Below are positions 34,065-46,550 of a stretch of DNA of 64,000 nt, piece by piece. The notes beneath the pieces were generated by a model that had not been told where the DNA came from, ran no database searches, and saw only the letters and a list, made by a program, of their open reading frames with translations. Position 1 is the stretch's first letter, and each line of letters starts with the position of its first letter. Made by a program: the position numbers and the translations under genes. Source of the stretch: Bryobacterales bacterium (GTDB lineage Bacteria; Acidobacteriota; Terriglobia; Bryobacterales; UBA6623); NCBI GenBank assembly GCA_965207035.1, contig OZ242259.1:586111-650110 (forward strand), given 5' to 3'.

Positions 34065-35204
34065 TCAGTCGATGAGCGCCTGGTATGCCAGAGTCTGAAA
34101 GTCTTGCCGGATGTTGAGGTGCGTGTACGGGCGGATCTGCGTCATGAGAATCCCAATCACCTCGTCGTCCGGGTCGACCCAGAAGACCGTGCAGTAAGCT
34201 CCGCCCCAGCCATAGGTGCCAACAGCGCTTGGCATCCCGCTCGCGCCGAGGTCGGTTGTCACCGAGTAGCCCAGACCGAATCCGAAGCCCGCGCCTCGCA
34301 ACCAGACCGCCTTGTCGCCAGTGTGGTTGGTGGTGATCAGCCGCACGGTTCGCGGTCCGAGAATGCGGACTCCGTCCAGTTCTCCGCCGTTCAGCATCAT
34401 TTGGTGAAAGCGAAAGTAATCGGTTGTCGTCGAAACCAGACCGCCCCCTGCGCTGAAATACACATGCGGTTCACTGACCCATCGGCTGTTTTCGTCGGGC
34501 CTCTCCGCCAGTTCGATCTTGCCTCCGGCGTCGGGCCGGTACAGGGCTGCGAACCGCGCGAGCTTCGAGCTGGGCATGTAGAAGTGTGTGTCTGTCATTC
34601 CAAGCGGAGTCAGGATCTTTTCCCGAAGATACTGGTCCAATGACATGCCCGAGATGACTTCGATGAGTCGTCCGGCGACATCCGTTGCCGGGCCGTATTC
34701 CCACTTCGCTCCAGGCTCGAAATTGAGTGGAAGCTCCGCCAGCGCCGTGACATAGTCCCCGACTGTGCCCCCCGGCTGGCGGTTCGCACGAACTTCGTTG
34801 TAGAGCGATATCGTGATTCCTCTGTACGGATTGGGTAGGCCCGCGGTGTGGGTCAGCAAGTGTTGAAACGTGATGGGACTCGCAGCGGCGACCCGCTTGA
34901 ACGGGCCGCGGGCGGAGTCCGCTGGCCCGACTGGCACGGCGACATCCATGCCGGCGAACTCTGGCAGGAACTTCGAGATCGGATCTCGAAGCTGGAAGTG
35001 ACCGTTTTCCCACAGCATCATCAGAGCCACCGTGGCGATTGGCTTGGTCATCGAGGCGATCCGGAAGATCACGTCGTTCGACATCGCCGCCTGCGTCTCG
35101 GCGTCCCTGTATCCGAAGCTTCGGTGGTACACGACGTTCCCCGAACGGGCGATCAGGGCAACCACTCCTGGCACTTCACGGCGGTCGACGTACCCCTGCA
35201 GCAT
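34065..35204 (-). CDS. beta-lactamase-family serine hydrolase, 5'-truncated by island insertion (reading frame continues without a start codon up to TAG at 35277-35279)
   Basis: SxxK motif ASMTKP and class-C/PBP4*-like colinearity. The conserved N-terminal segment PESAGFSSVRLEHVDR is encoded upstream of the first ATG (35204). It has no ATG/GTG/TTG before it and is closed by a TAG at the att core. Confidence 0.8.
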   Translation of the reverse strand: MLQGYVDRREVPGVVALIARSGNVVYHRSFGYRDAETQAAMSNDVIFRIASMTKPIATVALMMLWENGHFQLRDPISKFLPEFAGMDVAVPVGPADSARGPFKRVAAASPITFQHLLTHTAGLPNPYRGITISLYNEVRANRQPGGTVGDYVTALAELPLNFEPGAKWEYGPATDVAGRLIEVISGMSLDQYLREKILTPLGMTDTHFYMPSSKLARFAALYRPDAGGKIELAERPDENSRWVSEPHVYFSAGGGLVSTTTDYFRFHQMMLNGGELDGVRILGPRTVRLITTNHTGDKAVWLRGAGFGFGLGYSVTTDLGASGMPSAVGTYGWGGAYCTVFWVDPDDEVIGILMTQIRPYTHLNIRQDFQTLAYQALID

Positions 35205-35270
35205 TCGGTCGACGTGTTCGAGCCTTACGGACGAGAAGCCTGCGGATTCTGGCTCTCCCAGGACCGCAGG

Positions 35271-35277
35271 GGCGGCC
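35271..35277. repeat. attL core (GGCGGCC)
   Basis: It is identical to 44296-44302. The extended similarity is CCGCAGGGGCGGCCTAAGCGGTACTGAG (35264-35291) against CCGCATAGGCGGCCAAGGCGGCACTGGC (44289-44316). Confidence 0.6.
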
Positions 35278-35448
35278 TAAGCGGTACTGAGGCGCTCGGA
35301 GACCCCATTATCAGACCAATTGTCTTTTAACTCACTGGTACTAATAGACTTATGGTCATATAAGGCGAGCATGGCCCGAGGCTTCCCGTTCCTAAAATAC
35401 CTCCGGTCTGCTAGTAAAACGTGGGGTATATCGTGATACGCTGGAGCC

Positions 35449-36633
35449 ATGGCAAGCATTCTTAACGCTCGATCCTGCAAGGCGGCGAGGCCAACACCGG
35501 GCCAGCGATTCACCTACTACGGAGACGGCCTCGGGCATGGCCTCCGCCTCCGCGTCGCTCAATCCGGCGCGAAGTATTGGGAGCAACGGCTCACGGTCAA
35601 CGGCAAGCGGCGGGACCTTGGCCTCGGGCCGTTCCCGGAGATTGACCTAGACGCGGCGCGGGAGCTTGCCCTAGACAACAAGCGGACGGCCCGCAAGGGC
35701 GGGAACCCGCTGGCGAATAGCATCACGTTCCGGGAGGCCAGCGACGCTTGCACGGCCCTTGACGCTGCGAGTTGGAAAACAGACAAGCAACGGCGGGACG
35801 CGGAGGCCATGATGGACCGATGGGCGCTGCCTCGCCTCGGGGCCGTCAAGGTTGCCGCGATCAACCGGGGGGACGTCATGGACGCGCTAGAGCCTATCTG
35901 GATTGATCGGGCAGCGACGGCCAAGCGGGTCCTACAGCGGCTCTCCCGCGTGTTCGATTACTGCGTGGGCCGGGGTTACCGCGACGACAACCCGGCGGAC
36001 GTGGCGATCATGACAGCGGCGCTCCCAAAGCAACCGAAAGCGACGAACGGCAACGGCAACGGCAACGGGGCGGCGCGGCATCATGAGGCCGTCCCCTATG
36101 CGGAGCTTGCCGACGCGCTGGCCAAGGTGGACGCCTCCAGTTCGGGCGCGACCGTCAAGGCGCTGGTCCGCTTTACGGCCCTCACGGCTGCCCGGATCGG
36201 GGAGGCGCGGGGCGCTCAGTGGTCCGAGATTGACCTAGACGGCGCGGTCTGGACGATTCCAGCGGATCGCATGAAGGGCGGGCGGGAGCATCGCGTCCCG
36301 CTGGCCGATGCGGCTGTGGCGATCCTCCGCCAACAGCTTGCCATCCGGCCCCGGCGCTGCCCGTTCGTGTTCACTGGCACGGCAGGGCGGACTATCGGGG
36401 AGGGAACAGTCCGTAAGCTGTTCCGGTCGCTCCAGACCATCGGGGACCCTCACGGCCTACGCTCCAGCTTCCGCGATTGGGCGGCAGAGAATACCGAGGC
36501 CCCCCGCGAAGTGCTGGAGACGTGCCTAGCGCATGTTGTCGGCGGCAAGGTCGAGCGGGCCTATGCACGGACGGACCTGCTGGACAAGCGGCGGGCCGTC
36601 ATGGACGCTTGGGCCGACTATCTGGCCCGCTGA
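35449..36633 (+). CDS. int: tyrosine-type site-specific integrase (P4/CP4-57-like, DUF4102 N-domain)
   Basis: N-terminus YYGDGLGHGLRLRVAQSGAKYWEQRLTVNGKRRDLGLGPFPEIDLDAARE. Catalytic region ARIGEARGAQWSEID, HRVPL, HGLRSSFRDWAAE and ERAYARTD (R..HxxR..Y). Confidence 0.9.
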   Translation: MASILNARSCKAARPTPGQRFTYYGDGLGHGLRLRVAQSGAKYWEQRLTVNGKRRDLGLGPFPEIDLDAARELALDNKRTARKGGNPLANSITFREASDACTALDAASWKTDKQRRDAEAMMDRWALPRLGAVKVAAINRGDVMDALEPIWIDRAATAKRVLQRLSRVFDYCVGRGYRDDNPADVAIMTAALPKQPKATNGNGNGNGAARHHEAVPYAELADALAKVDASSSGATVKALVRFTALTAARIGEARGAQWSEIDLDGAVWTIPADRMKGGREHRVPLADAAVAILRQQLAIRPRRCPFVFTGTAGRTIGEGTVRKLFRSLQTIGDPHGLRSSFRDWAAENTEAPREVLETCLAHVVGGKVERAYARTDLLDKRRAVMDAWADYLAR

Positions 36634-36653
36634 CACTCAGGACGGTCCCACAG

Positions 36654-36689
36654 CGGCCCCCGGAGCCAATCTGACGGCCTCGGGGGCCG
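36654..36689 (+). terminator. possible stem-loop after int
   Basis: CGGCCCCCG (36654-36662) pairs with CGGGGGCCG (36681-36689) around an 18-nt loop, followed by TTCGTG. The loop is large and the U-tract poor, so this is weak. Confidence 0.25.
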
Positions 36690-36835
36690 TTCGTGCGTCT
36701 AGGGGTCCGGGAGCGATTGGCGGCGAGTACAGCGTCTTGGCAGAGCACGCGAGGCCCCAGTCGCTCCCGGTTCGGGCGATCCTCGCGGTAATGGTCTTCG
36801 CCCCGAGGATCGGCCCGAGCCTCCAGAGTACCCCC

Positions 36836-36881
36836 GATTGGCGATGGCGGGCAGTGATTGGCGATGGCGGGCAGTGATCGG
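36836..36881 (+). repeat. tandem 20-bp repeat pair, set 1 (GATTGGCGATGGCGGGCAGT x2 + GATCGG)
   Basis: Perfect tandem copies at 36836-36855 and 36856-36875. The whole ~46-bp block recurs at 37386-37431. Confidence 0.9.
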
Positions 36882-36941
36882 CCCCGGCCAATCGGAGGCG
36901 CAGTCTACCCCAATGGACGGCGGAGCGGGTCCGGGGTGGAC

Positions 36942-37301
36942 CTAGCTCTTAGGTCCAGACCGCAGCGCCTCGGCGGTGTGCGTCAACAGGATTGTCCGGC
37001 TGTCCAAGTATGGGGCGGGGTTGGCCTCGCGTTCGGCTTCCATTAACCCCAGACGGGCGCTATGCCAAGCGACTGATCCGTACCGTACCGTGTCCGATCG
37101 GTTCCCGGATGCCCTGACAATCCAATGCAGCAGTCGTATCAGGGGCGATGGCAGTCTCGTCTCTTGTAACCGTCTCGCCATGGCCCCAGAGGCAATGTCA
37201 TGAGGGCCGACGGTGGGAGACGCTGCCGTCATGCGGACGCCTCCGGGGGAACGGCGAGACGCGCTGACGTTGACCTGTGCTAAGTTGGGGGTCTGGGTCA
37301 T
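36942..37301 (-). CDS. hypothetical protein between the two repeat sets (possible island regulator; coding status uncertain)
   Basis: This is the only non-low-complexity ORF in 36.64-37.85 kb. An internal ATG would give a 79-aa product starting MARRLQETRLPSPLIRLLHW. There is no clear SD and no recognisable domain. Confidence 0.25.
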   Translation of the reverse strand: MTQTPNLAQVNVSASRRSPGGVRMTAASPTVGPHDIASGAMARRLQETRLPSPLIRLLHWIVRASGNRSDTVRYGSVAWHSARLGLMEAEREANPAPYLDSRTILLTHTAEALRSGPKS

Positions 37302-37385
37302 GGCGGGGCTTCGCCTTTGATCCTTGACGCCTCGGAGCTTGGGTCAGTTCCGGGGCGTTTTCATTGATCGCCTCCAGCTTACCTC

Positions 37386-37431
37386 GATTGGCGATGGCGG
37401 GCAGTGATCGGCGATGGCGGGCAGTGATCCG
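37386..37431 (+). repeat. tandem 20-bp repeat pair, set 2 (GATTGGCGATGGCGGGCAGT, GATCGGCGATGGCGGGCAGT, GATCCGG)
   Basis: It is a direct repeat of set 1, 550 bp downstream and in the same orientation. Confidence 0.9.
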
Positions 37432-37439
37432 GCCCCCTG

Positions 37440-37600
37440 CCGCAAGACCCCCCGGCCCGTCCCGCAAGACCCGTCCCGCTAGACCCCTCCCCTGCCGCAA
37501 GACCCGTCCCCTGCCCGTGGGGGGGGGGGGAGGGTGTGTCAACATGGCACACCCTCCCCGGCCCCCGGCCCCCTGCCGTTAGACCCCTGCCGCTAGACCC
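37440..37600 (+). repeat. array of six direct CCG(C/T)(A/T)AGACCC 11-mers flanking a G12 tract and a 12-bp inverted repeat
   Basis: The 11-mers lie at 37440, 37462, 37476, 37495, 37576 and 37590. The G12 tract is at 37519-37530. GGGGAGGGTGTG (37527-37538) and CACACCCTCCCC (37548-37559) are perfect inverted arms with a 9-nt spacer. Confidence 0.9.
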
Positions 37601-37628
37601 CTCCCCGTCCCGGTCCCCTCCCGGTCCC

Positions 37629-37688
37629 GATCCGTCCCGATCCGTCCCGATCCCTCCCCGATCCGTCCCGATCCGTCCCCGATCCGGG
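37629..37688 (+). repeat. tandem decamer array GATCCGTCCC (about 5.5 units, two 11-nt variants)
   Basis: Read directly from the sequence: gatccgtccc gatccgtccc gatccctcccc gatccgtccc gatccgtcccc gatccggg. Confidence 0.9.
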
Positions 37689-37782
37689 CAAAACGGACCT
37701 TGGGGACCCCTGCCCCGGACCCGCTCAGGGTAGAGCAGCGTAGCGGCTTAGGGACGAGCTAACACACCCCCACGGGGGGCCG

Positions 37783-37834
37783 GATTCCCCATAACCGCGT
37801 GTGGGGAATCACTGACGGCCATTTGGCCGTCAAT
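37783..37834 (+). promoter_or_regulatory. composite control element upstream of terL: 9-bp-stem inverted repeat + 20-bp palindrome TGACGGCCATTTGGCCGTCA
   Basis: GATTCCCCA (37783-37791) and TGGGGAATC (37802-37810) form the inverted repeat. The palindrome is at 37813-37832 and ends 26 nt before the terL ATG. The palindrome recurs at 39753-39772 and 44109-44128. Confidence 0.6.
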
Positions 37835-37858
37835 TTCGGGCCGGGGCGAGCCTGAGAT

Positions 37859-39424
37859 ATGGGAACCCCCAACACGGCCTCCGCGCTGATCCGCTACCTA
37901 GAGACGCTGACCTGCACTCAGGGCCAAGGTGCGGGCGATCCGCTGGAGGTCCTGCCGTGGCAGCGGCGGTTTATCAGGGGCGCATTCTCGGGGCCGGGGG
38001 ACGCGGCCCTGAGCGTGGCAAGGGGGAACGGCAAGACAACGCTGCTGGCCGGGGTCGCTGCTGCGTTCGTGAATGGCCCGCTCAGGCAGCCTCGGGCGGA
38101 GGTTGTGATCATCGCGGCCAGCTTGGCTCAGGGCAAAATTTCGTTTTCCCACACGCGGGCATTCTTGGAGGCGAGCGGTTGCGACCTGACGGCGCGCAAG
38201 CTGTGGAAATGCCACGACGGCGTCAATAGTGCGAGCATCGAGCATCGGCCCTCGGGGTCCCGCGTTCGGGTTATCGGATCGGACCCCAAGCGGGCGCACG
38301 GTCTGGCCCCCGCGCTGATCCTCGCCGATGAACCCGCGCAATGGCCCCCCAACACGGCTGAGGCCATGGTCGCGGCCCTCAAGACCGCTCGGGGCAAGAT
38401 TCCCGGCGCGAAGATGATCGCGCTAGGGACGCGGCCAGCGGAACCCGATCATTGGTATCAGCGGATGCTAGACGGGCAGGGCGTCAGCTACGCGCAATCC
38501 CATGCGGTCCCCTCCGGGACCGGGGACGCGATGCTCGGGCAGCGTGGATTTTGGCGCAAGGCGAATCCGTCGCTCGGGTTCATGCCAGACCTAGAGGCCG
38601 CGATCCGGGACGAATGGTCAACGGCCAGCAGGGACCCGTCGCTGCTGGCCTCATTCAAGGCATTACGCCTGAATATGGGGGTCCCGGACGTTCTGGCCTC
38701 AAGCCTACTGGAGGCGGAGACGTGGCGGCGCATCGAGGCCCCGGAGGGCCAAGGCGTCGAGCGGCGCGGGCCGTGGGCGCTCGGGGTCGATTTGGGCAGT
38801 ACAGCGGCCATGTCTGCCGTGGCGGGGTACTGGCCCGAGACGGGCGCATTGACGGCCCTTGCTTGCTTCCCGGCAGACCCTCCGCTGGCGGATCGGGGAC
38901 GGCAGGATGGGGTCGCTGACCTGTACGTCCGCATGGCGGAGCGGGGCGAGTTGATTATAGCGGGGCGCTACGTCTCGGAGGTCCCCGCGCTGTTGCGGGA
39001 GGTTGTGGACCGATGGGGGGTCCCGGACGTGATTGTCTCGGATCGCTGGAGGCTCGGGGAATTGCGGCAAGCATTGGAGGCGGCAGGTATGCCCAGGACG
39101 GCCCTTGCCACGCGGGGGCAGGGGTACTTTGACGGCGGGGCGGACGTGCGGGAGTTCCGTAAACAGTGCGCCTCGTTGGCCGTGCGGCCTGACGTTTCGC
39201 TGCTGCTGCGGGCCGCGATGGCGGAGGCCCGCGTTCAGACTGACGCGGCTGCTAACGCGAAGCTGGCGAAGGGTTCCGAGGGGGGACGGCGGCGGCGGGC
39301 GAGGGATGACGCGGCGGCGGCTGCGATCCTCGCAGTAGCGGAGGGGACCCGTAGGGCCGGGACCGGGACCGGGACCGGGGACAGCGACGGGACCCCACGG
39401 CGGAGGCTGCGAGTATGCGCGTAG
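37859..39424 (+). CDS. terL: phage terminase large subunit
   Basis: Walker A context SVARGNGKTTLLAG and a Walker B-like LILADEPAQW. The C-terminal nuclease-half length is typical of the Terminase_1 family. Total 521 aa. Confidence 0.8.
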   Translation: MGTPNTASALIRYLETLTCTQGQGAGDPLEVLPWQRRFIRGAFSGPGDAALSVARGNGKTTLLAGVAAAFVNGPLRQPRAEVVIIAASLAQGKISFSHTRAFLEASGCDLTARKLWKCHDGVNSASIEHRPSGSRVRVIGSDPKRAHGLAPALILADEPAQWPPNTAEAMVAALKTARGKIPGAKMIALGTRPAEPDHWYQRMLDGQGVSYAQSHAVPSGTGDAMLGQRGFWRKANPSLGFMPDLEAAIRDEWSTASRDPSLLASFKALRLNMGVPDVLASSLLEAETWRRIEAPEGQGVERRGPWALGVDLGSTAAMSAVAGYWPETGALTALACFPADPPLADRGRQDGVADLYVRMAERGELIIAGRYVSEVPALLREVVDRWGVPDVIVSDRWRLGELRQALEAAGMPRTALATRGQGYFDGGADVREFRKQCASLAVRPDVSLLLRAAMAEARVQTDAAANAKLAKGSEGGRRRRARDDAAAAAILAVAEGTRRAGTGTGTGDSDGTPRRRLRVCA

Positions 39425-39732
39425 GCTCAGGGCAACCGCTTACAGGGAATCCACGGCCCCTGTATCGGCCAGACCTGCACGGGCGGCGCTGGCAAGCGAT
39501 CCGGCGGGCCGTGCTGCTGCGGGACCGCTACCGCTGTAGAGTGTGCCTTCGGGCGGCGAGGCTCGAAGTTGACCATATCCGGCCCATCCGGCAGGGCGGC
39601 GAGGCGTGGAACCTAGCGAACCTCCAGACCCTCTGCCGTGGCTGCCACATTGACAAGACACGGCGCGAGAATACCGGGCGGAGGCGCAACCGCTTGCCTC
39701 CCGGATGGGACGCGCTGCTGCTGGAATTGTAG
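39415..39732 (+). CDS. HNH endonuclease
   Basis: CRVCLRAARLEVDHIRPIRQGGEAWNLANLQTLCRGCHIDKT is an H-N-H motif with CxxC pairs. It overlaps the terL stop by 10 nt. Confidence 0.85.
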   Translation: MRVGSGQPLTGNPRPLYRPDLHGRRWQAIRRAVLLRDRYRCRVCLRAARLEVDHIRPIRQGGEAWNLANLQTLCRGCHIDKTRRENTGRRRNRLPPGWDALLLEL

Positions 39733-39752
39733 GACCCGCTTGGCCCGTTTAC

Positions 39753-39772
39753 TGACGGCCATTTGCCCGTCA
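39753..39772 (+). promoter_or_regulatory. second copy of island palindrome (TGACGGCCATTTGCCCGTCA) upstream of capsid gene
   Basis: It has one mismatch to the perfect palindrome and shares the flanks ACTGACGG...CGTCAAT. It ends 40 nt before the capsid ATG at 39813. Confidence 0.55.
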
Positions 39773-39812
39773 ATCGAGGGCCGCTGATACCGTGAGGCTT
39801 GGAGGTTGCCTG

Positions 39813-41066
39813 ATGACTAACAGACAACGCTTGGAGCTACGATCCTCAGAGATTCGCAGCCGCTTGAATGAGATCGCGGGCCTAGAATCCGAGGCCCTAA
39901 CGGATGAGATTCGCAGCGAATCGGACAAGCTGCAAGGCGAGTATCGGGGCGTCGAGACTCAGCTACGCGCTGCCATTCTGGCGGAGGGCGGAGACGGCAA
40001 GGGGGGCGATGGTTCCCCACAACCGCGTGTGGGCAATGACGGGAACCCCGAGGCCCCCGAGGATCGGGAGCTACGCTCCCTGATCGGCAAGGCGTCGCTG
40101 GCAAGCATCGCTGACGCGGCGCTAGAGCAGCGCAGCACGGACGGCGCGGAGGCGGAGCTACAGCAGCACTTGGGGCTAGGGCCGTCTCAGGTCCCCGTCG
40201 AGTTGCTGCGAGGCGATCCGCTCCCGGAGGCGCTGGAGACGCGGGCCGTAACTCCCGCACCGGCTGATACTGGCGTCTCGCAAGCGGCGATCATTCCCTA
40301 TCTGTTCCCGCGTTCGGCGGGCGCATATCTCGGGGTCAGCAACCCCACGGTCCCCGTAGGGGAGCGGCTGTTTCCCGTGCTGACTACCCCGGCAACGGTC
40401 CACGCTCCGGCCAAGGATGCGGACGCGGCGGAGACTACGGGCAGCTTCGCCACAACGGCCCTGAAACCGGCGCGGCTGCAAGCTGAGTTCTTTTTTAATC
40501 GGGAAGATTTGGCGACGTTCGCCGGAATGGAGGCCGCGCTGCGCCAGAATCTCGGGGACGCGCTGGCCGACGCGCTGGACGGCAAGATCATAGGGCAATT
40601 CTTCGCGGCCTCGGGGGGTCTGGCGAACCCCACGAACCCCACGGCAGAGGCTACGTTTTCGACCTATCGCGGCCAGCTATTCGGAGGCATTGATGGGCGC
40701 TACGCCAACACGGCGGCTGACCTGCGCTGGCTGGTCAACAGCGACACATACAAGCATCTTGCCTCGAAGTATCGCGGCAACACTGCCGACGATTCGGCCC
40801 TCGATTCGCTCATGCGCGTCTCGGGCGGGGTCCGCGTCTCAACGCACATTCCGGCCAAGGCGGGCAACGTCAGCGGGTTCCTAGCGTCCAAGGCGGGCGC
40901 ACGCGGCCAGAATGCGGTCGCTCCGGTCTGGCAGGGGGTCAGCCTGATCCGCGACGAATTCACCAAGGCCGACCGGGGTCAGATTCGCTTGATCGCGGTC
41001 ATGCTCTACAGCGTGGCAATTCTCAGGGCCGATGGATTCCAGCGGCTCGAAGTTCACACGGGTTGA
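39813..41066 (+). CDS. phage major capsid protein, HK97 family
   Basis: GGAGG at 39801-39805, then ATG 39813. N-terminal coiled-coil delta-like region (RQRLELRSSEIRSRLNEIAGLE...). The C-terminal part ...WQGVSLIRDEFTKADRGQIRLIAVMLYSVAILRADGF is typical of HK97-fold MCPs. Confidence 0.8.
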   Translation: MTNRQRLELRSSEIRSRLNEIAGLESEALTDEIRSESDKLQGEYRGVETQLRAAILAEGGDGKGGDGSPQPRVGNDGNPEAPEDRELRSLIGKASLASIADAALEQRSTDGAEAELQQHLGLGPSQVPVELLRGDPLPEALETRAVTPAPADTGVSQAAIIPYLFPRSAGAYLGVSNPTVPVGERLFPVLTTPATVHAPAKDADAAETTGSFATTALKPARLQAEFFFNREDLATFAGMEAALRQNLGDALADALDGKIIGQFFAASGGLANPTNPTAEATFSTYRGQLFGGIDGRYANTAADLRWLVNSDTYKHLASKYRGNTADDSALDSLMRVSGGVRVSTHIPAKAGNVSGFLASKAGARGQNAVAPVWQGVSLIRDEFTKADRGQIRLIAVMLYSVAILRADGFQRLEVHTG

Positions 41067-41092
41067 TGGATAACCCGTGCGGAGACTGACGG

Positions 41093-41707
41093 ATGGAACG
41101 GCTAGAAACTGGCGATGCTTTTGTCCTGAGCGTCCCTGAGCTTGAAATCCGGCGGGGTAGGGGCGGCGGCGGCGGGGCGGGTCGATACGTCCTTGGCCGC
41201 TTCCCCTACGGAGTCACGGCAACGATACGGGACCGGGGACGCCTCCGCAAGGAACGGTTTGGGGTCAAGGCGTTCGCTCGGGCAATCGAGCGGGCGGAGG
41301 AGGAGATTAACCTCTTGGCCGGTCACAATTTCGGCCAGCCGCTGGCCTCCAAACGGGCCGGGTCGCTGAAGCTGGACGATACCCCCGAGGCCCTGACATT
41401 CGAGGCCAAGCTGCCCGACAAGGGGCCGTCATGGATTGAGGATACGGTTCTGGCGCTGGAGGCCGGGTTGGCCGTGGGCGTCTCGCCGGGATTCCGTGTG
41501 CCTCCGCTCAACGTGGTCCCGGACGCGGAGGTCGAGGTCCCGGAACCCGGCAATCCGGGGGTGTTTATCCGGCAGATCAATCAAGCCATGCTTTACGAGT
41601 TGTCCATCGTGACGCGACCCGCTTACAGCGCCTCCAGCGCGGAGGTCGAGGCGCGGGCCGTTGCGTACAGCTTCGCCGATCCTGAGCGGAGGCGGCTATG
41701 GCTGTAA
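41093..41707 (+). CDS. HK97-family prohead protease
   Basis: YGVTATIRDRG...ERFGVKAFARAIE....INLLAGHNFGQPLA...L.LDDTPEALTFEAKLPD matches the S78/U35 prohead protease layout (conserved H in the LxxH block). It lies adjacent to the capsid gene. Confidence 0.65.
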   Translation: MERLETGDAFVLSVPELEIRRGRGGGGGAGRYVLGRFPYGVTATIRDRGRLRKERFGVKAFARAIERAEEEINLLAGHNFGQPLASKRAGSLKLDDTPEALTFEAKLPDKGPSWIEDTVLALEAGLAVGVSPGFRVPPLNVVPDAEVEVPEPGNPGVFIRQINQAMLYELSIVTRPAYSASSAEVEARAVAYSFADPERRRLWL

Positions 41708-42030
41708 TGGACCTAGCGGCGCTGTATGAGGCCGTCACGCTCAACGCGGGGCCTCCAAGCGGCCCCGAGGCTGCCCGCTGGGAGTCGCTGTATGCGGGTG
41801 CCTGGGCGATTATTGACAGGTATGCTCCCGAGGCCCCCGAGGGCGTCAAGAATGAGGCGCTAGTCCGTTTCGCGGGGTACGCGGCGGACGTGCAAGGCGT
41901 CACTAAAGAGGCCATCGGGGAGCAGTCGGTAGAGTACACGGACCGCACGTCCCCGGCAGTATTCAGGCGATCCGGCGCGATGGGGTTGCTGTCCCCGTGG
42001 AAACGGCGGCGGGCCGGGAGGATCGGCTGA
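41698..42030 (+). CDS. gp6-like head-tail connector (adaptor) protein
   Basis: 110 aa, overlapping the protease stop. The ...AGAWAIIDRYAPEAPEGVKNEALVRFAGY... pattern is typical of the phage gp6-like head-tail connector family. Confidence 0.55.
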   Translation: MAVMDLAALYEAVTLNAGPPSGPEAARWESLYAGAWAIIDRYAPEAPEGVKNEALVRFAGYAADVQGVTKEAIGEQSVEYTDRTSPAVFRRSGAMGLLSPWKRRRAGRIG

Positions 42031-43088
42031 TGCGCTGGCCGTGGCAACGCTCCGAGGCCGACGCGCTGGAGACCCGCGACGCTGACTACAGCGACGCGAT
42101 AGTCGGGCAGATTCTACGCAACGCTACGGGCGGGGAACCCGCAAGCATGTACGCGCTGGCCGCGCTGGAGGCGGCGGCGGGAATCGTGGGGCGATCCTTC
42201 GCCGTTGCGTCCGTCCAGTCGGCCTCGGGTCTGGTAACGGAGGCGCTGCCCCCCTCCCTGCTGGCCCTGATCGGTCGCTCCCTGATCCGGCGCGGGCAGC
42301 TTGTCTGTAGCATCGAGACGACGGGCGGACGCCTTGCGCTGCTGCCCGCTGCAAGTTGGGACGTCCAAGGCGGGCCAGACCCTCGAAGCTGGCAGTACCG
42401 CCTCGAATTGGGGGGACCCTCGGGCAGCGTCACGCGGCGCAATCCGGGCGAGGGCGTGATAGACCTGAGGTATAGCTGCGATCCGGCGCAACCATGGCGC
42501 GGCCTCGGGCCGCTACAGGTTGCGAGGCTAGACGGGCGGCTAGGTTCCGAGTTGGCGGCGGCGCTCGGAGACGAGGCGGCAGGGCCTCGGGGTTCGCTGC
42601 TGCCCGTACCGGGCGAGGGCGGAGACGGGGAATTAGACGAGCTACGGGCCGATATCGCGGGGTTGCACGGCAAGGCGGCGCTGCTGGAAACCACTAGCGG
42701 CGGATGGGGCGAGGGCAAGGGCGCGGCCCCTCAGCAGGATTGGACGCCTAAGCGGCTCGGGCCGAATCCTAGCGCGGCGCTGGTACAGCTCCGCCGGGAC
42801 GTTGAAACGTCCGTGGTTGCCGCGTGTGGCGTCCCGCTGGAATTGCTGACTCCGGCTGCTGGAACAGGCGGACGCGAATCTTACAGACGCTTCCTATTCT
42901 CGACTGTGGCCGCGCTCGGGCGCATCGTTGCGGACGAATTGACCCGCAAGCTGGAGACGCCAGTATCGCTCGACTGGGGCGAGCTACGGGCGGCGGATAT
43001 CTCGGGACGGGCGAGGGCCTACCAGTCGCTAGTCGGGGCCAACATGGACGCCTCCAAGGCGGAGCGACTGGCGGGTCTGCTGGAGTAG
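42030..43088 (+). CDS. phage portal protein (HK97 family, short form)
   Basis: TGATG overlap with the adaptor stop (42028-42032). The central and C-terminal regions ...RESYRRFLFSTVAALGRIVADELTRKL... are portal-like. Confidence 0.65.
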   Translation: MRWPWQRSEADALETRDADYSDAIVGQILRNATGGEPASMYALAALEAAAGIVGRSFAVASVQSASGLVTEALPPSLLALIGRSLIRRGQLVCSIETTGGRLALLPAASWDVQGGPDPRSWQYRLELGGPSGSVTRRNPGEGVIDLRYSCDPAQPWRGLGPLQVARLDGRLGSELAAALGDEAAGPRGSLLPVPGEGGDGELDELRADIAGLHGKAALLETTSGGWGEGKGAAPQQDWTPKRLGPNPSAALVQLRRDVETSVVAACGVPLELLTPAAGTGGRESYRRFLFSTVAALGRIVADELTRKLETPVSLDWGELRAADISGRARAYQSLVGANMDASKAERLAGLLE

Positions 43089-43104
43089 ATAGGGGGTAAC
43101 TGGG

Positions 43105-43425
43105 ATGCACTCAAACTGCTGTATCACCTGCGGGGCGTCGCTGGCAGGGTTCCGCTCAAATCGGAGATTCTGCGAGCCTTGCATGGTGCGATGGAATCGC
43201 GAGAGGAAAGGCCCCTACGACCGGGAGCGGCGGGCGCGGGAGCGGGAGCTACGCGGCAAGCGGACGTGTGCTGGTCTTGGCTGCGAGGTCGATATCACGA
43301 ACACGCACGGCAGGACCCTCCGCTGTCCCGATTGTGCGCGGGAGCGGGCGCTGGAGGGGAACCGGCGGAGTAGCGCACGATGGGCGGCGCGTAAGCGGGA
43401 GCGGGCAGCCAAGCGGGCAGCCTAG
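43105..43425 (+). CDS. Arg-rich double zinc-ribbon protein (106 aa), function unknown
   Basis: Two Cys pairs per half: CCITCG...CEPC and CAGLGC...CPDC. A strongly basic RERRARERELRGKR linker and tail suggest nucleic-acid binding. Confidence 0.55.
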   Translation: MHSNCCITCGASLAGFRSNRRFCEPCMVRWNRERKGPYDRERRARERELRGKRTCAGLGCEVDITNTHGRTLRCPDCARERALEGNRRSSARWAARKRERAAKRAA

Positions 43426-44069
43426 CGGGCCTCGCGGGCCTCGGCAAGGTTGATCCTCGCCTCCCATCCCTGAGCGGACAGCGACGGGGCGCACGTGCGG
43501 GCCTCGCGGCCCTCCCTGACGCGATCCTTGACGGCGGCTGCCCAATTGCCCGATACCTGAGCGACGGCCCCGGCCAGCGTCTCCAGCAGGGCGTCCAGTT
43601 CGGCTGCCTCCAGTTCGGCTGCCTCTAGGTATTCGATGGCCCCGCTCAGGAGGCCGTCAAACCTCCAGCTTGCGCGGCTGCCGTCCCCGAATTCGGACGC
43701 GGCAACCTCCGGGGCGAGGCGGCGGAGTTCCACGGCCCCGGCCAGCAGTTCGTCGGGCGAGCGAATCAGGCGCGGCGCTAGGAATGCGCGAGCCTCCAGC
43801 AGTCGGCCTAGGGCGTCCCGCTCCATGGCGTCGAGGCGATCCGAGACTCCCCGGCCAATCGGGGCGCTGCCCCGGATGCGCGCCAACAGCGACCGCTCCG
43901 GGCCATCGTAAAGCGTCTCGGCCTCGACTAGTTCCGGCGGATCGCTCGGGGCAGGGTCCCGCAGCACGGTAGCGCAGCGTTCCCCCGTCTCCGCATCGTG
44001 CCAGCATCGCAGCGTGAGGCGCGGCGTGGGGTGCAGGTCAATGTCCATGATCCGGTTTGTAGTGAACAT
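43422..44069 (-). CDS. hypothetical protein, reverse-oriented island gene
   Basis: ORF 43422-44180 (TTG). The ATG at 44069 (MFTTNRIMDIDLH...) is preferred because it leaves the palindrome at 44109-44128 in the upstream region. The protein is helical and acidic, with no recognisable domain. Confidence 0.5.
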   Translation of the reverse strand: MFTTNRIMDIDLHPTPRLTLRCWHDAETGERCATVLRDPAPSDPPELVEAETLYDGPERSLLARIRGSAPIGRGVSDRLDAMERDALGRLLEARAFLAPRLIRSPDELLAGAVELRRLAPEVAASEFGDGSRASWRFDGLLSGAIEYLEAAELEAAELDALLETLAGAVAQVSGNWAAAVKDRVREGREARTCAPSLSAQGWEARINLAEAREAR

Positions 44070-44108
44070 GCCCAACAGTGTATCGCGGGGCCTCGGGGCC
44101 TCGGGGAT

Positions 44109-44158
44109 TGACGGGCATATGGCCGTCAGTGATTCGGGACAACCGCGTGAGGGGAACC
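44109..44158 (-). promoter_or_regulatory. third copy of island palindrome (TGACGGGCATATGGCCGTCA) plus flanking AACCGCGTG module
   Basis: The palindrome is at 44109-44128, 39 nt upstream of the minus-strand ATG at 44069. The adjacent GATTCGGGACAACCGCGTGAGGGGAACC matches 22/28 with the module at 37783-37810. Confidence 0.55.
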
Positions 44159-44295
44159 CGCTACTCCCGAAAACGTGCAAGATGGGCGGTTTTTTTTGGT
44201 GTGGGGGCGTGTGGGGTATCGGGGTCCCCGGTACTCTCCCGAATAGGACCCTAAACTATTGATTTATAAAGACCTTAGAGGCCATATCCCGCATA

Positions 44296-44302
44296 GGCGG
44301 CC
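44296..44302. repeat. attR core (GGCGGCC)
   Basis: See attL. On the minus strand, this core is codon-aligned (GCC GCC) in both the orphan 5' fragment and the truncated hydrolase body. Confidence 0.6.
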
Positions 44303-44373
44303 AAGGCGGCACTGGCAAGAACACTCCCGGCAACAGCGGCGGCCGCCATGAGTCGTGGGATCGCGCGGAGCAT
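44296..44373 (-). pseudogene. orphaned 5' end (start codon + signal peptide) of the split serine hydrolase gene
   Basis: The minus-strand ATG at 44373 is preceded by GAGAGGA. It encodes MLRAIPRLMAAAAVAGSVLASAALAA up to the core, then runs into island DNA (YAGYGL, stop at 44275-44277). Confidence 0.7.
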
Positions 44374-44536: not shown

Positions 44537-44579
44537 ATGCTGCGATTTGGAATCGTCGTCTTGGGGTGGGTTCCCCTAG
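44537..44579 (+). pseudogene. orphaned 5' end (start + most of signal peptide) of the IS-disrupted sulfatase gene
   Basis: ATG 44537 encodes MLRFGIVVLGWVPL, then the IS begins at 44580. Continuing at 46555 gives ...VASAAPNILFVMSDDH in frame. Confidence 0.7.
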
Positions 44580-46550
44580 CGGTAGTTTACGGGCTTTCGT
44601 CGCTGTCGTGGGGGTAGGGCCCGCGAAGTGATTCCATCCACAGCAGTTACCAGTCGGCGCTCCATCCTCTTTTGTATTACCCTATATGAGATTCTGGATC
44701 AATTCCTTTGAGAATTGCTTGCATTCGCTTCCATGGTGTTCTAGTATTACCCTATATGGCATCCATCGTCGGCAAGAAAAAGGGCAACCAAACCTACTAC
44801 TACGTCGTCACCTCCGGCCGCGTCAACGGCAAGCCCCGCATCACCCACCAAACCTACCTCGGTACCGCCGATCGACTCGCCCAACTCGTCCGCGACAAGG
44901 CCGCCCCCATCCCTCTCGAGGCCACGGCCCGCGACGCCGGCCTCCCGGTCGCCCTCTGGCAGGCCGCCCAACTCTCCGGCACCCTCGACGCCCTCCTCTC
45001 CGTCTGGCCCGCCCCTAAACGCGGCCCCTCCATCCCCCATTTCCTGCTCCTCGCTGCCTTCCACCGCATCTGCGCACCAGGCCCCAAGACCGAGGTCGCC
45101 GACTGGTACCGCCACTCCGTCCTCGCCGACCTGTGGGGCTTCGCCCCCAGCCTCTTCTCCTCCCAGGCCTTCTGGGACCATTTCGACGCCATCGACGTCA
45201 GCGCGGCGCTCACCGAGCCCTCCTCTGACGAACTCGAGCAGGCCCAGCTGGCCCTGCTGCAGGCCTTCCGCGCCCGCGACCTCGTCAGCCAACGCGTGCT
45301 GGCCTACGACACCACCAATTTCCACACCTGGATCGGCACCACCAACACCCGCAACCAACTCGCCCAGCGCGGACACAACAAGCAGAAGCGCCACGACCTG
45401 CGCCAGATCGGCCTCAGCTACGCCCTCGACGGGCAGCACGGCCTCAGCCTGTGTCATCACGTCTACCCGGGCAACGTCACCGACCGCGACGAGTTGCCGG
45501 CCTGCCTCGGGCGCATCACGCGCCTGCTCGACGGGGCGTCGATTCCGCGCGAGACGGTCACACTGGTGTTGGACAAGGGCAGCGCGGCGCTGGCCAACAC
45601 CCTGGCCCTGCAGGCCAGCGGGCTGGGCTGGATCGCAGCGCTGCCGTGGGACCAGGCCCCGGCCGCGCTGCGCTCGCGTGCGGTCGAGGAGTTGGCCGCG
45701 GTGCCTGGCGAGCCCGGCCTGCGGGTCGGGTCCGAGCGCACCCTGGTGCACGGGGCCGAGTATCTGGGCGTGCTCCGGCATTCGGCGGGTTTCGCCGCCG
45801 AACAGTTCCAGAGCGTGACCCTGTCGCTGGCGAAGGCGACGCAGAAGCTGCGGGCCCTCGCGCGGGAGATCGGCCAGCCCCGGGACCGGCACACGGAACA
45901 GGGCTTGCGCAACCGGATCCAGCGCTGGCTGCGGCCGAACTTCGTTTCGCAGGCGCTGAGTTACACGCTGCGGCGCGGCGCGGACCGCAGTTGGGACCTG
46001 CAGTTCGCGATCGACGCGGAGGCGCTGCACCGGCTGTTGACCGAGCGCTTCGGGCGGACCACGCTGGTAACCAACCGGCTGGACTGGAGCGCGGCCGAAG
46101 TGGCCACGGCCTACAACGGCCAGCAGCACGTGGAGCGCGTGTTCCGCGGCCTCAAAGGCGGGGACTGGCTGGGATGGGGGCCGCTGCACCACTGGACCGA
46201 CAGCAAGATCCGGGTGCATGCGTTTTACTGCCTGTTGGGGGTGTCGCTGATGCAGTACCTGTACCAGCAGGCACAGGCTGCGTGGCCGCTGTTGACCATG
46301 GAAGGGCTCAAGCACGAACTGGGGCAGATCCAGCGCATCGACCTGCTGTATCCGCCGCTGGGGGCGAAGGGACCGCCGCGGGTGGCGACCATCACGTCGA
46401 AGCAGACATTGACCCAAGCGGCCCTGGTGTCCGAACTGGGATTGGAGAAGCTGCTCAAGACCGACGGTAGGTAATACAGCCAGCCCACACCTAACTGACT
46501 CTGAGCCAGTACGTTACAACTATTTTTCCTTCAACTTCAGTAAACTACCG
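44580..46550 (+). mobile_element. insertion sequence, 1,971 bp, 11-bp perfect terminal IRs (CGGTAGTTTAC), 4-bp CTAG target duplication
   Basis: IRL 44580-44590 and IRR 46540-46550 (GTAAACTACCG). CTAG lies at 44576-44579 and 46551-46554. It carries a single DDE transposase ORF. Confidence 0.8.
44756..46474 (+). CDS. DDE transposase, IS4-superfamily (IS1634-like)
   Basis: The N-terminus MASIVGKKKGNQTYYYVVTSGRVNGKPRITHQTYLGT resembles the IS1634-family N-terminal pattern. 572 aa. The 556-aa antisense ORF is GC shadow. Family assignment is tentative. Confidence 0.75.
   Translation: MASIVGKKKGNQTYYYVVTSGRVNGKPRITHQTYLGTADRLAQLVRDKAAPIPLEATARDAGLPVALWQAAQLSGTLDALLSVWPAPKRGPSIPHFLLLAAFHRICAPGPKTEVADWYRHSVLADLWGFAPSLFSSQAFWDHFDAIDVSAALTEPSSDELEQAQLALLQAFRARDLVSQRVLAYDTTNFHTWIGTTNTRNQLAQRGHNKQKRHDLRQIGLSYALDGQHGLSLCHHVYPGNVTDRDELPACLGRITRLLDGASIPRETVTLVLDKGSAALANTLALQASGLGWIAALPWDQAPAALRSRAVEELAAVPGEPGLRVGSERTLVHGAEYLGVLRHSAGFAAEQFQSVTLSLAKATQKLRALAREIGQPRDRHTEQGLRNRIQRWLRPNFVSQALSYTLRRGADRSWDLQFAIDAEALHRLLTERFGRTTLVTNRLDWSAAEVATAYNGQQHVERVFRGLKGGDWLGWGPLHHWTDSKIRVHAFYCLLGVSLMQYLYQQAQAAWPLLTMEGLKHELGQIQRIDLLYPPLGAKGPPRVATITSKQTLTQAALVSELGLEKLLKTDGR

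Follow-up and report, generated by a model that had tools for sequence, protein, structure and literature searches.

Capsid-forming satellites of the cf-PICI type release tail-less capsids that later bind tails (10.1101/2022.09.08.507074; 10.1101/2025.02.11.637232), and one of them, EcCIEDL933, is ~15.5 kb long (10.1101/2025.02.11.637232). For the comparison with cf-PICIs we used Alqurainy et al. (10.1101/2022.09.08.507074), He et al. (10.1101/2025.02.11.637232) and SatelliteFinder (PMC10085698). Classical PICIs/SaPIs and P4-like satellites remodel the capsid proteins of a helper and encode at most TerS, capsid-size determinants or a few head proteins. The vast majority of marine VEIMEs lack capsid-like structural genes and are carried as concatemers inside the capsids of helpers (Eppley et al., 10.1101/2022.07.26.501625). 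In addition, 'twilight' HK97-fold viral genomes of less than 11.6 kb have been found in IMG/VR (Aguilar et al., 10.1101/2025.06.18.659913); their characterised clade is from the human gut, has encapsulin-like capsid proteins, and lacks portal and terminase.

We analysed a 64-kb stretch of Bryobacterales DNA (the window), in which positions 35271-44302 form an island. Our best reading is that it represents a new, minimal lineage of cf-PICI-like capsid-forming satellite; we give a probability of roughly 0.6 to its being an integrated member of a widespread, apparently undescribed family of 9-11 kb elements that build their own HK97-type head, pack their own DNA, and have no tail or lysis genes. 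Like EcCIEDL933 and the other cf-PICIs, it is an integrative island with an HK97-type capsid, prohead protease, portal, head-tail adaptor, HNH and TerL, without tail and lysis genes, and its relatives have an int-AlpA-primase/Rep left arm. Proteobacterial cf-PICIs have a similar capsid-protease-...-portal sub-order, and the predicted capsid fold matches the solved capsid of the cf-PICI EcCI2 (9gyi, 1.7e-10). In contrast to cf-PICIs, in which hnh-terS-terL lie at the end of the operon and the neck is made of an adaptor and connector(s), the island has TerL-HNH at the operon start, no recognisable TerS, and one small neck protein. It is also smaller than EcCIEDL933 (9.0 kb), this copy lacks AlpA and Rep, it sits in a protein-coding gene, and its proteins have diverged so far that they mostly miss Pfam and NCBIfam cut-offs and that the capsid has no GenBank phage match. 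The hosts of the family include Acidobacteriota, Chloroflexota, Thermodesulfobacteriota, Binatia and Poribacteria, not only Proteobacteria and Firmicutes. With seven of the 11 components of the formal cfPICI definition, the island falls outside that class as strictly drawn.

Classical PICIs/SaPIs and P4-like satellites are likewise integrase-bounded islands of ~10-15 kb that depend on a helper for virion parts, and AlpA-type regulators and P4/D5-type primases occur in relatives of the island as well, but the island family encodes a whole head and packaging motor. VEIMEs resemble the family in being integrative satellites from the environment that carry integrase, AlpA and primase. The 'twilight' genomes are similar in their HK97-fold capsid, their ~9 kb size and, mostly, the absence of tail genes, and some are temperate; unlike the characterised clade, the island family has TerL, HNH and portal. 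GTAs of the RcGTA type have a small HK97-fold head, and the structure of the RcGTA capsid matches closely (6tb9, 5e-11), but GTAs have tail genes, lack integrase and att sites, are vertically inherited, and package host DNA.

The island is a true insertion (features given below lie on the plus strand unless stated otherwise). Joining its flanks yields a single continuous ORF with a signal peptide and a beta-lactamase-family domain, which starts MLRAIPRLMAAAAVAGSVLASAALAAPAVLGEPES... and runs on into the PF00144 domain. The 3' part of this gene, encoding the mature domain of a beta-lactamase-family serine hydrolase (34065-35270, minus strand; PF00144, 3.4e-69), is in frame with the 5' signal-peptide part (44303-44373, minus strand), recognised from the flank-joining ORF, once the island is removed. 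An imperfect 21-bp repeat brackets the island: attL (CCGCAGGGGCGGCCTAAGCGG, 35264-35284, core GGCGGCC at 35271-35277) matches attR (CCGCATAGGCGGCCAAGGCGG, 44289-44309, core at 44296-44302) at 17 of 21 positions. An earlier sequence-only reading had placed the ends by the two copies of GGCGGCC. The 7-bp core means nothing alone, since 17 copies occur in the window against 31 expected, but the ends themselves hold because of the 21-bp repeat and, decisively, because the hydrolase ORF is restored. The higher GC content of the island, which had been judged by eye, was borne out by calculation (0.670 inside versus 0.615 outside). Near the two ends lie copies of GTGGGGTA (35421-35428 and 44211-44218), and the closest relative, L001, has the same motif near both of its ends (TGTGGGGTACTGTGGGGTA left, GTGTGGGGTAC right); these copies are candidate arm-type integrase sites, as the integrase has an Arm-DNA-bind_3 domain. 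A metagenome scan found neither an empty site nor an attP junction. The right end of the island is followed, 274 bp further on, by an IS element.

Seven core genes were recognised. The tyrosine integrase (35449-36633, 394 aa) is intact and contains PF13356 (Arm-DNA-bind_3), PF22022 (Phage_int_M) and PF00589 (Phage_integrase), with a match to phrog_1 (2.6e-52). The HK97-like large terminase, TerL (37859-39424, 521 aa), matches phrog_9 (2.3e-58) and the HK97 TerL structure 6z6d (1.7e-27), deposited as terminase large subunit, and it is followed by an HNH endonuclease (39415-39732, 105 aa; PF01844, 1.5e-10; phrog_589, 4.7e-24). The major capsid protein (39813-41066, 417 aa, in an ORF that opens at GTG 39792) has an N-terminal helical, delta/scaffold-like domain of ~170 aa. 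Its assignment rests decisively on the predicted fold, because the sequence match is weak (PF05065, 5.8e-5, under the Pfam cut-off): the AlphaFold model (pLDDT 87.2) gave 369 PDB capsid matches in Foldseek at E<=1e-3, the best at 1e-12, including R4C, RcGTA, T5, cf-PICI EcCI2 and HK97. More than 1264 capsid homologues were found. The prohead serine protease (41093-41707, 204 aa) matches PF04586 (Peptidase_S78, 2e-15) and phrog_80 (4e-11), and the portal protein (42030-43088, 352 aa) matches PF04860 (1.3e-10).

The 110-aa protein between them (41698-42030) is a probable head-to-tail adaptor of the gp6/gp15-like type. The 'gp6-like' label given to it earlier finds no Pfam or PHROG match in the window protein; what stands is a weak structural resemblance of its AlphaFold model (pLDDT 85.5), which had a Foldseek E value of 0.31 and whose top PDB matches were the SPP1 gp15 connector (probability 0.84, TM 0.50-0.53), the phage Douge connector and the SaPI1 neck. 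PF05135 is touched by only two of 28 family members, at E ~0.03, and the position of the gene ahead of the portal is kept in 29 loci. The coordinates of the genes and the other identities (integrase, TerL, HNH, capsid, protease, portal) proposed from sequence were upheld by profile and structure searches; the overlaps at 39415/39424 and 41698/41707 and the TGATG at 42028-42032 were confirmed, and all core genes are free of internal stops. The reported lack of tail, lysis, replication, repressor and TerS genes was likewise upheld, as Pfam, PHROGs and NCBIfam searches found none of the tail, lysis, TerS, repressor or replicase families in any island ORF. Neither AlpA nor a replication gene was found in the island.

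Two lineage-specific genes follow the portal. The first encodes a basic, Cys-rich, zinc-ribbon-like protein of 106 aa (43105-43425). This protein matches only the NCBIfam HVO_2753 zinc finger family, weakly (1.4e-4), and no homologue of it is present in related loci. The second is an orphan gene of 215 aa (43422-44069, minus strand; the ORF reaches 44180 from TTG). Its protein has no homologue besides itself among 1.84 billion representatives, while its codon-position GC (0.75/0.54/0.81) is like that of real genes, and it is preceded by the same control module as TerL.

That module (37782-37832) consists of a 24-nt motif, TTCCCCAYAACCGCGTGTNGGGAA, followed by a palindrome, TGACGGCCATTTGGCCGTCA (37813-37832). 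The 54-nt module recurs inverted upstream of the orphan gene (44107-44160, minus strand; palindrome TGACGGGCATATGGCCGTCA at 44109-44128) with 78% complementarity, and a further palindrome copy, TGACGGCCATTTGCCCGTCA (39753-39772), stands upstream of the capsid gene. The repeated palindrome seen by the sequence-only reading is real: TGACGGNC-N4-GNCCGTCA has three perfect copies, at 37813, 39753 and 44109, and a scan allowing up to two mismatches gave five matches in the 64-kb window against 0.72 expected from shuffles. The 24-nt motif is kept in L001 (two copies versus 0.01 expected). Between integrase and TerL, two iteron-like 20-bp tandem repeats (36836-36882, 2.3 copies of GATTGGCGATGGCGGGCAGT; 37386-37429, 2.2 copies), which may be an origin or binding sites, flank a conserved non-coding block of ~370 nt (36916-37290, no strand assigned) that is common to L001 only, at 73-80% nucleotide identity. 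Mismatches in this block show no codon periodicity, in no frame does amino-acid identity reach nucleotide identity, and Rfam gave no match; the 119- and 115-aa ORFs listed there are probably spurious. Further on are a G-rich hairpin with 22-nt arms of 86% complementarity (37520-37566) and six tandem copies of the 10-bp repeat GTCCCGATCC (37624-37686), a candidate binding array for terminase or a regulator upstream of TerL.

We found ~45 relatives in Acidobacteriota, Chloroflexota, Thermodesulfobacteriota, Alpha- and Gammaproteobacteria, Binatia and Poribacteria. The family set comprised 35 genome loci (from all these groups except Poribacteria), seven IMG/VR contigs, and Poribacteria. All family loci have the order TerL-HNH-capsid-protease-adaptor-portal, and module and order are kept across at least seven phyla. 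Relatives are 9-11 kb long and usually adjoin a tRNA; most have a tRNA gene or host genes within ~1.5 kb of the portal or beside the integrase, islands terminate at tRNA genes 0.4-1.5 kb beyond the portal or beside the integrase, and L001 and L002 are flanked by host metabolic genes. The apparent size peak at ~9-10 kb is partly an assembly effect, because many family contigs of that size are linear and some are cut inside genes. Most relatives carry, between integrase and TerL, AlpA (PF05930, 1e-10) and either a P4/D5-type primase (phrog_1156, 7e-61) or an AAA_25 RepA-like helicase (6e-32). Their layout combines a PICI left arm with a head module, and this strengthens the satellite reading well beyond what the window alone would allow. 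A second small neck gene, head-closure-like or gp10-like, often stands before or after the portal, one relative having an HK97-gp10-like neck protein, and TerS is not recognisable anywhere in the family. Gene identities, the ~45 head-only relatives and the PICI-type left arms thus support the capsid-forming satellite that the sequence-only reading had suggested.

Because the window copy is without the AlpA, primase/Rep and extra neck proteins of most relatives, it may fail to excise, replicate or dock a tail. The strongest alternative, to which we give a distinctly minor share of the probability, is that it is a reduced, no longer mobile family member that lost AlpA/Xis, primase/Rep and neck-completion genes and was stranded in the hydrolase gene. 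In place of the AlpA, the primase/helicase and the frequent second neck gene of relatives it has a 1.2-kb non-coding, repeat-rich gap, and there are two lineage-specific genes after the portal. All seven core genes, however, are intact, and the iteron-like repeats and the 370-nt block could be an origin for a host or helper initiator. Moreover, L001, whose core proteins are 66-86% identical to those of this copy, is equally reduced and lies at a different chromosomal site, likewise inside a protein gene. Between the two copies dN/dS is 0.15-0.36 in all seven core genes (integrase 0.36, TerL 0.33, capsid 0.23, portal 0.15), which indicates purifying selection on them. It follows that the reduced layout has changed sites and has been kept under selection.

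The family could also be an autonomous, minimal virus, tail-less or nearly so, whose portal-adaptor vertex delivers DNA with no helper. We consider this unlikely. In its favour, the family is highly compact and consistent in itself. A subtype without integrase has the adaptor fused to a C-terminal extension, giving a protein of 396-890 aa, and the extension could be a fibre or rudimentary tail, but these long extensions have no Pfam or PHROG match, and the window has only the 110-aa adaptor, without a fibre, a receptor-binding/ejection protein or a lysis gene. Two relatives of this subtype assemble as circles of 9,794 and 9,410 bp, and 1463x coverage is stated in the contig name of the larger one. 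These circles fit the satellite reading too, but having no integrase they do not show excision of integrative members. The int-AlpA-primase arm, in turn, is the hallmark of helper-dependent islands.

An ordinary HK97-like prophage reduced by deletion, with its tail, lysis and replication regions lost, is an improbable source of the island. The recognisable genes are all classical HK97-type head and packaging genes and the IS element 274 bp to the right makes local rearrangements plausible, but the head-only set is exactly what lies between the att-like repeats, and taking it out restores the target ORF. Relatives continuing into tail or lysis modules would have pointed to a remnant; in the 44 related loci and the stand-alone contigs, the head module never runs on into recognisable ones, and head-only content and size are common to the ~45 relatives in many phyla. 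The gene order differs from that usual in HK97 prophages, and the capsid has no match among 50,697 GenBank phage records and is therefore not a fragment of a known phage type. Least credible is a domesticated GTA-like or encapsulin-like host module, part of which had been raised earlier as a head-only GTA-like module: the head-only content and the RcGTA capsid among the best structural matches fit it, but the island has its own integrase, att-like ends, a GC content foreign to the host and a disrupted host gene, family insertion sites vary between genomes (tRNAs, different protein genes), portal, TerL and HNH imply DNA packaging rather than a protein nanocompartment, and GTAs encode tails.

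As a capsid-forming satellite, the element would be switched on by a helper phage or stress, with control through the 20-bp palindrome ahead of TerL, the capsid gene and the divergent orphan gene, and the integrase would excise it at the 21-bp att repeats. Capsid protein, protease and portal would form a procapsid of about T=3, as estimated from genome size by scaling from the T=4 cf-PICI capsid ((9.0-9.8 kb / 15.5 kb)^(2/3) x 4 = ~2.8-2.9). TerL and HNH would then act on island DNA, recognising and cutting it within the repeat-rich stretch upstream of TerL, and would package it into the head, and the 110-aa adaptor would cap the portal. The tail of an unrelated helper phage would join the head, a dependence suggested solely by the absence of tail genes, and the helper would also give lysis and possibly, to this copy without AlpA and Rep, replication or induction. 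Most likely, then, the head-only elements of this family, which occur in uncultured bacteria of many phyla, spread by borrowing the tails of other phages.

The island (35271-44302) is richer in GC than the remaining window (0.670 against 0.615), a difference that had previously been judged by eye. The 7-bp GGCGGCC core that had been taken to mark its boundaries occurred 17 times in the window, where 31 copies were expected, and is uninformative alone. The position of the ends nonetheless stood, on other evidence. An imperfect 21-bp repeat, 17/21 identical, is common to both ends (attL 35264-35284 and attR 44289-44309), and splicing of the left and right flanks over this repeat gave one uninterrupted minus-strand ORF, in which a typical signal peptide (MLRAIPRLMAAAAVAGSVLASAALAAPAVLGEPES...) is followed by a beta-lactamase-family domain (PF00144, 3.4e-69). 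The restoration of this ORF demonstrates that the island is a genuine insertion, and the gene that it splits, between signal peptide and mature domain, encodes a secreted serine hydrolase. Motifs of the form GTGGGGTA lie close to both island ends, as they do in L001, the closest relative, and are candidate sites for the arm-binding domain of the integrase. No tRNA gene was found in the window.

The predicted attP junction of the island contains CCGCATAGGCGGCCTAAGCGG, and the empty attB form contains CCGCAGGGGCGGCCAAGGCGG. A degenerate 21-mer that allowed for attL, attR, attB and attP had 68 matches in the metagenome collection, none of them with the flanks of the window; the longest match was 39 bp. 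The matches resemble chance hits on Ala-rich signal-peptide coding sequence, and we take them neither as empty sites nor as evidence either way. The attB-form 21-mer is itself present in several unrelated contigs among the metagenome loci L045-L112, where it is probably coding sequence for an Ala-rich part of signal peptides. In that case, a sequence shared by many secreted-protein genes may be what the integrase targets. A separate insertion sequence (IS) of ~1.98 kb (44576-46554, GC 0.68-0.71) stands 274 bp beyond the right end of the island, upstream of the start of the split hydrolase gene. Its ends are perfect 15-bp inverted repeats (CTAGCGGTAGTTTAC / GTAAACTACCGCTAG), and it encodes a 588-aa DDE_Tnp_1 transposase (44708-46474; PF01609, 9e-9), and a 15-bp direct repeat, GTATTACCCTATATG, occurs close to its left end at 44674 and 44744.

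An ORF map and profile searches recovered the island genes where the sequence-only reading had placed them, with the overlaps and the TGATG junction that it had described. The tyrosine integrase (35449-36633) has arm-binding, central and catalytic domains (PF13356, PF22022 and PF00589; phrog_1, 2.6e-52). The large terminase, TerL (37859-39424), matched phrog_9 at 2.3e-58 and the solved TerL 6z6d at 1.7e-27, and is followed by an HNH nuclease (39415-39732; PF01844, 1.5e-10), the capsid gene (39813-41066), an S78 prohead protease (41093-41707; PF04586, 2e-15), a 110-aa ORF (41698-42030) and the portal (42030-43088; PF04860, 1.3e-10, above the cut-off). After the portal come two lineage-specific genes, a basic, Cys-rich ORF of 106 aa, with at most a weak zinc-finger match in NCBIfam, and, on the minus strand, a 215-aa orphan whose codon-position GC is gene-like. 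An exhaustive HMMER search of 1.84 billion representative proteins found no homologue of the orphan but itself, and three weak multi-segment matches were taken as compositional.

Because the sequence evidence for the capsid protein was weak (PF05065 at 5.8e-5, under the cut-off; no PHROG match; no PDB sequence match, family profile included), we predicted its structure. The AlphaFold model, made with 92 homologues, had a pLDDT of 87.2 and gave 369 PDB matches at E<=1e-3 in Foldseek. The best were all HK97-fold capsids, including those of siphophage R4C (1e-12), RcGTA, T5, EcCI2 (1.7e-10), which is a capsid-forming phage-inducible island (cf-PICI), and HK97 itself. In the model, the N-terminal ~170 residues form long helices (H3-22, H31-61 and H82-119) resembling the delta (scaffold) domain of HK97, and these helices, together with the presence of a protease, suggest that the N-terminal domain would be cleaved. 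The island has an HK97-type head and packaging module consisting of capsid, S78 protease, portal, TerL and HNH nuclease, and the capsid, portal, terminase and protease assignments were upheld.

The 110-aa protein had been called a gp6-like adaptor, and sequence profiles barely detect it. Its AlphaFold model (64 homologues, pLDDT 85.5) consists of three helices, a beta-hairpin and two short helices. The best PDB match was SPP1 gp15 in the gp6/gp15/gp16 connector (probability 0.84, TM 0.50-0.53, E 0.31), and further matches were the phage Douge connector and the SaPI1 neck. The gene stands directly before the portal in 29 loci, a constant place that fits an adaptor. Structure and position together suggest that the protein is probably the head-tail adaptor. 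No second neck (connector) gene was found in the window island.

Profile searches, NCBIfam included, matched no island ORF to tail, holin/lysis, TerS (small terminase), repressor or replication families, in agreement with the sequence-only reading, and NCBIfam put a name on none of the head genes. No island ORF, in the integrase-TerL interval or outside it, matched a regulator of the AlpA, MerR or Stl type, and the island gave no primase-replicase. TerS was matched neither in the window nor in ten ORFs abutting TerL in relatives; a very divergent TerS could escape such a search.

The 1.2-kb gap between integrase and TerL is without a convincing gene. A block of ~370 nt within it is 73-80% identical to L001, with an amino-acid identity below the nucleotide identity in every frame and mismatches that show no codon periodicity. 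Small ORFs in the gap (119 and 115 aa on the minus strand and several on the plus strand) matched no family and, together with the missing periodicity of the block, were rejected as genes. The block had no Rfam match; the RNA folding z-scores of the gap were -0.2 and -2.4, and its one long hairpin is, by eye, apparently not kept in L001. Around the block are two pairs of 20-bp iteron-like repeats, a G-rich hairpin and six tandem copies of GTCCCGATCC.

Directly upstream of TerL is a 54-nt control module, in which a 24-nt motif (TTCCCCAYAACCGCGTGTNGGGAA) is followed by a perfect palindrome (TGACGGCCATTTGGCCGTCA). The palindrome is also found before the capsid gene (39753), and the whole module occurs again, inverted, before the divergent right-end gene (44107-44160), so that the island has three sites with the half-sites TGACGGNC-N4-GNCCGTCA. 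The repeated operator proposed earlier is present in this form, and as read from its sequence it may work at the DNA level, as an operator, or in 5' leader RNA, as an 8-bp hairpin. L001 keeps the 24-nt motif, and its palindrome (ACCGCCATTGGGCGGT) is another one, which is what element-specific regulation would predict. Several stand-alone contigs start just upstream of TerL, which raised the possibility that the palindrome is a cos site. We rejected this because the island has three copies and because the contig ends of two relatives, L026 and L041, fall in a G-run region typical of assembly breaks. Copies of the 24-nt motif also occur in coding sequence, within the 5' part of the island's capsid gene (TTCCCCACAACCGCGTGTGGGCAA, 40010-40036) and, as the second copy of L001, at the TerL/HNH junction (9576-9599), and are possibly an embedded regulatory or packaging signal. 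An 18-nt perfect inverted repeat (GGCCAAGCGGGTCCTACA / TGTAGGACCCGCTTGGCC) pairs 35919-35936, inside the integrase gene, with 39728-39745, at the end of the HNH gene, across a distance of 3.8 kb; by chance it is not expected in 9 kb.

The capsid protein had more than 1264 homologues, and no relative among 50,697 GenBank phage records. We compared two metagenome loci, 35 loci in species-representative genomes and 7 IMG/VR contigs. The host MAG labels were Vicinamibacterales and Bryobacterales (Acidobacteriota), Thermodesulfobacteriota, Syntrophobacterales, Rhodospirillaceae and other Alphaproteobacteria, Gammaproteobacteria, Binatia and Chloroflexota/Dehalococcoidia, and one capsid homologue came from a Poribacteria MAG. 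Almost all loci have the order TerL-HNH-capsid-(small P-loop protein)-protease-adaptor-(second small neck gene)-portal, and in one relative a neck protein resembling HK97 gp10 precedes the portal. Between integrase and TerL, most loci encode an AlpA or HTH_17 protein (PF05930, 1e-10), and this left arm also carries a P4/D5-type primase (D5_N/DUF5906; phrog_1156, 7e-61) or an AAA_25 RepA-like helicase (6e-32). All-against-all ORF clustering of the loci revealed no further shared family downstream of the portal except a 115-aa protein with a weak head-completion match.

The loci also differ in several details. An alphaproteobacterial MAG (L017) has two diverged head modules, TerL to portal, in tandem (8184-13931 and 15530-20948), with capsids 46% and 30% identical to that of the window and one integrase detected. 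The P-loop protein of ~145 aa (MPNRLLSGPAGGGKSQEAK...), which fills the capsid-protease gap in 17 loci (e.g. L007, 11222-11671) and is lacking in the window, has a weak AAA_33 match (E 0.005); going by its sequence, it could be a packaging or regulatory NTPase. Kilobase-sized insertions lie in or between head genes in L037 (6085-10001), L018 (11539-12754) and L006 (5501-10001), splitting the capsid gene of L037 by ~4 kb and the protease gene of L018 by ~1.2 kb, and L022 and L026 have insertions between adaptor and portal. Some of these carry an ORF family of 350-450 aa (F29) that is present elsewhere in the loci too, suggesting that the insertions are probably IS elements or introns. In L014, a Binatia island, a minus-strand gene (14276-16075) between the portal and an inverted int-AlpA-primase arm encodes a 599-aa protein with at most a weak alpha-repeat match, possibly cargo such as a defence gene.

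The most closely matching functional model is the cf-PICI. These are integrative islands with HK97-type capsid, protease, portal, connectors, HNH, TerS and TerL and without tails (10.1101/2022.09.08.507074), and they release DNA-filled tail-less heads that are later bound to the tails of various phages (10.1101/2025.02.11.637232). The cfPICI model of SatelliteFinder has 11 core components, of which at least 9 are required, and forbids tail and holin (PMC10085698). The window island has 7 of the 11: integrase, capsid, protease, portal, HNH and TerL are clear and the adaptor is probable, whereas regulator, primase-replicase, TerS and second connector were not found; it has no tail or holin genes. 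Fuller relatives, some of which have a gp10-like or weak head-completion neck homologue, reach functionally ~10 of 11, never with a recognisable TerS. With 7 components against the required 9 or more, the island is not to be filed as a cfPICI, but by analogy it would work like one. Other differences are its gene order (TerL-HNH first), which the sequence-only reading had already listed as a difference along with the missing TerS, its size (9 kb against ~15.5 kb for EcCIEDL933), its extremely divergent proteins, its host range and, in the sub-lineage of the window, insertion in protein-coding genes and not beside tRNAs. The left arm of the relatives, int-alpA-rep, is PICI-like. At least three origins have been reported for cf-PICIs, and the family may be a further, independent lineage beside them. 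The family also differs from VEIMEs, which are mostly without capsid genes (10.1101/2022.07.26.501625), and from the 'twilight' mini HK97 genomes of IMG/VR, which lack portal and terminase (10.1101/2025.06.18.659913).

A missing tail could also mean that the island is a one-off deletion remnant, as would be the case if homologous islands continued into tail and lysis modules. The relatives do not continue in this way. At least 12 loci have a tRNA gene 0.4-1.5 kb past the portal or adjoining the integrase, and L001 and another relative, L002, have host metabolic genes directly outside (precomputed annotation), so that the relatives' islands are 9-11 kb long, with no room for tails. L001, with 80% capsid identity, has a reduced layout like that of the window and sits inside a different gene (Peptidase_S15/S9). 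Between it and the window copy, dN/dS was 0.15-0.36 for all 7 core genes; these genes are under purifying selection, and the head module is kept across the family. Taken together, the conserved content and ends of the relatives and the dN/dS values rule out a deletion remnant, and a conserved, selected, head-only mobile element is the only economical reading. A GTA-like module, the other possibility considered earlier, was rejected, since gene transfer agents have tail genes, a conserved chromosomal locus and no integrase or att sites, whereas the island has an integrase and att-like repeats and no tail genes, and its relatives are scattered over many different sites. The conserved head-only relatives, their AlpA/primase arm and the purifying selection support the capsid-forming satellite that the sequence-only reading had proposed.

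Two relatives assembled as circles: L032, with a 55-bp terminal overlap and a 9,794-bp unit (contig of 9849 bp; 1463x coverage per contig name), and L043, with a 99-bp overlap and a 9,410-bp unit (contig of 9509 bp). Both are without integrase, and both join the adaptor to a long C-terminal extension in proteins of 694 and 766 aa. These circles show the head module on unit-length extrachromosomal DNA, not the excision of integrative members. The integrase-less subtype comprises L032, L043, L011, L026, L041, L044 and L025, in which an adaptor domain of ~100 aa and its extension make up 396-890 aa; the extensions had no Pfam or PHROG match in the three tested (L011, L026 and L032), and the fused protein of L025 contains repeated DQTARDAAA...H motifs. 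Such elements could be mini-viruses that bear a fibre and need no tail, or plasmid-like satellites. Many other contigs are 9.1-9.9 kb long and without terminal repeats. We do not count this 9-10 kb peak as proof of free unit-length genomes, because terminal overlaps were seen in L032 and L043 alone and at least one contig, the HiFi contig L116, breaks off within genes. The ends of L026 and L041 lie in a G-run region.

By cf-PICI logic, the satellite would be induced via its shared palindromic control sites and excised by the integrase. Capsid protein, protease and portal would then assemble a procapsid, TerL and HNH would package DNA from the repeat-rich region upstream of TerL, the adaptor would cap the portal, and a helper phage would supply tail and lysis functions. 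The data show the insertion, gene identities, family conservation and purifying selection; all of these dynamic steps are inferred. The head of EcCIEDL933 reportedly has T=4, measures 47.5 nm and holds 15.5 kb; scaled from this, a genome of 9.0-9.8 kb would give T ~2.8-2.9, i.e. a T=3 head. For the window copy, which is without AlpA, Rep and extra neck proteins, present mobility is the main uncertainty. In its fullest form, which we consider unlikely, at about one chance in five, the proposal would be that the family is the smallest DNA-packaging HK97 class (~9-10 kb, a predicted T=3 portal-bearing head and no recognisable TerS) and an ancient satellite lineage independent of cf-PICIs, whose tail-less heads dock on the tails of unrelated phages in at least seven phyla of uncultured bacteria, many apparently sponge-associated. 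As part of this unlikely reading, the integrase-less subtype could even be an autonomous mini-virus in which a single fused neck-fibre protein replaces the tail.

Nearly all capsid-forming satellites known so far come from Proteobacteria and Firmicutes (SatelliteFinder, PMC10085698), and we found no description of them for the phyla concerned in the PubMed Central and bioRxiv literature searched. Standard annotation overlooks the family; in the window copy, no head gene is named by NCBIfam and the SatelliteFinder count is below the cfPICI threshold. At 9 kb, integrase, TerL, HNH, capsid, protease, adaptor and portal are a near-minimal set for a self-packaging head, and the family raises the questions of DNA recognition without TerS and of T=3 as a possible size of a portal-bearing HK97 head. 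The more than 1000 capsid homologues suggest that making a head of one's own and taking the tail from others is a strategy of much greater age and spread, extending, if so, to Acidobacteriota, Chloroflexota, Thermodesulfobacteriota, Binatia and Poribacteria, in which, to our knowledge, the routes of gene transfer are almost unknown.
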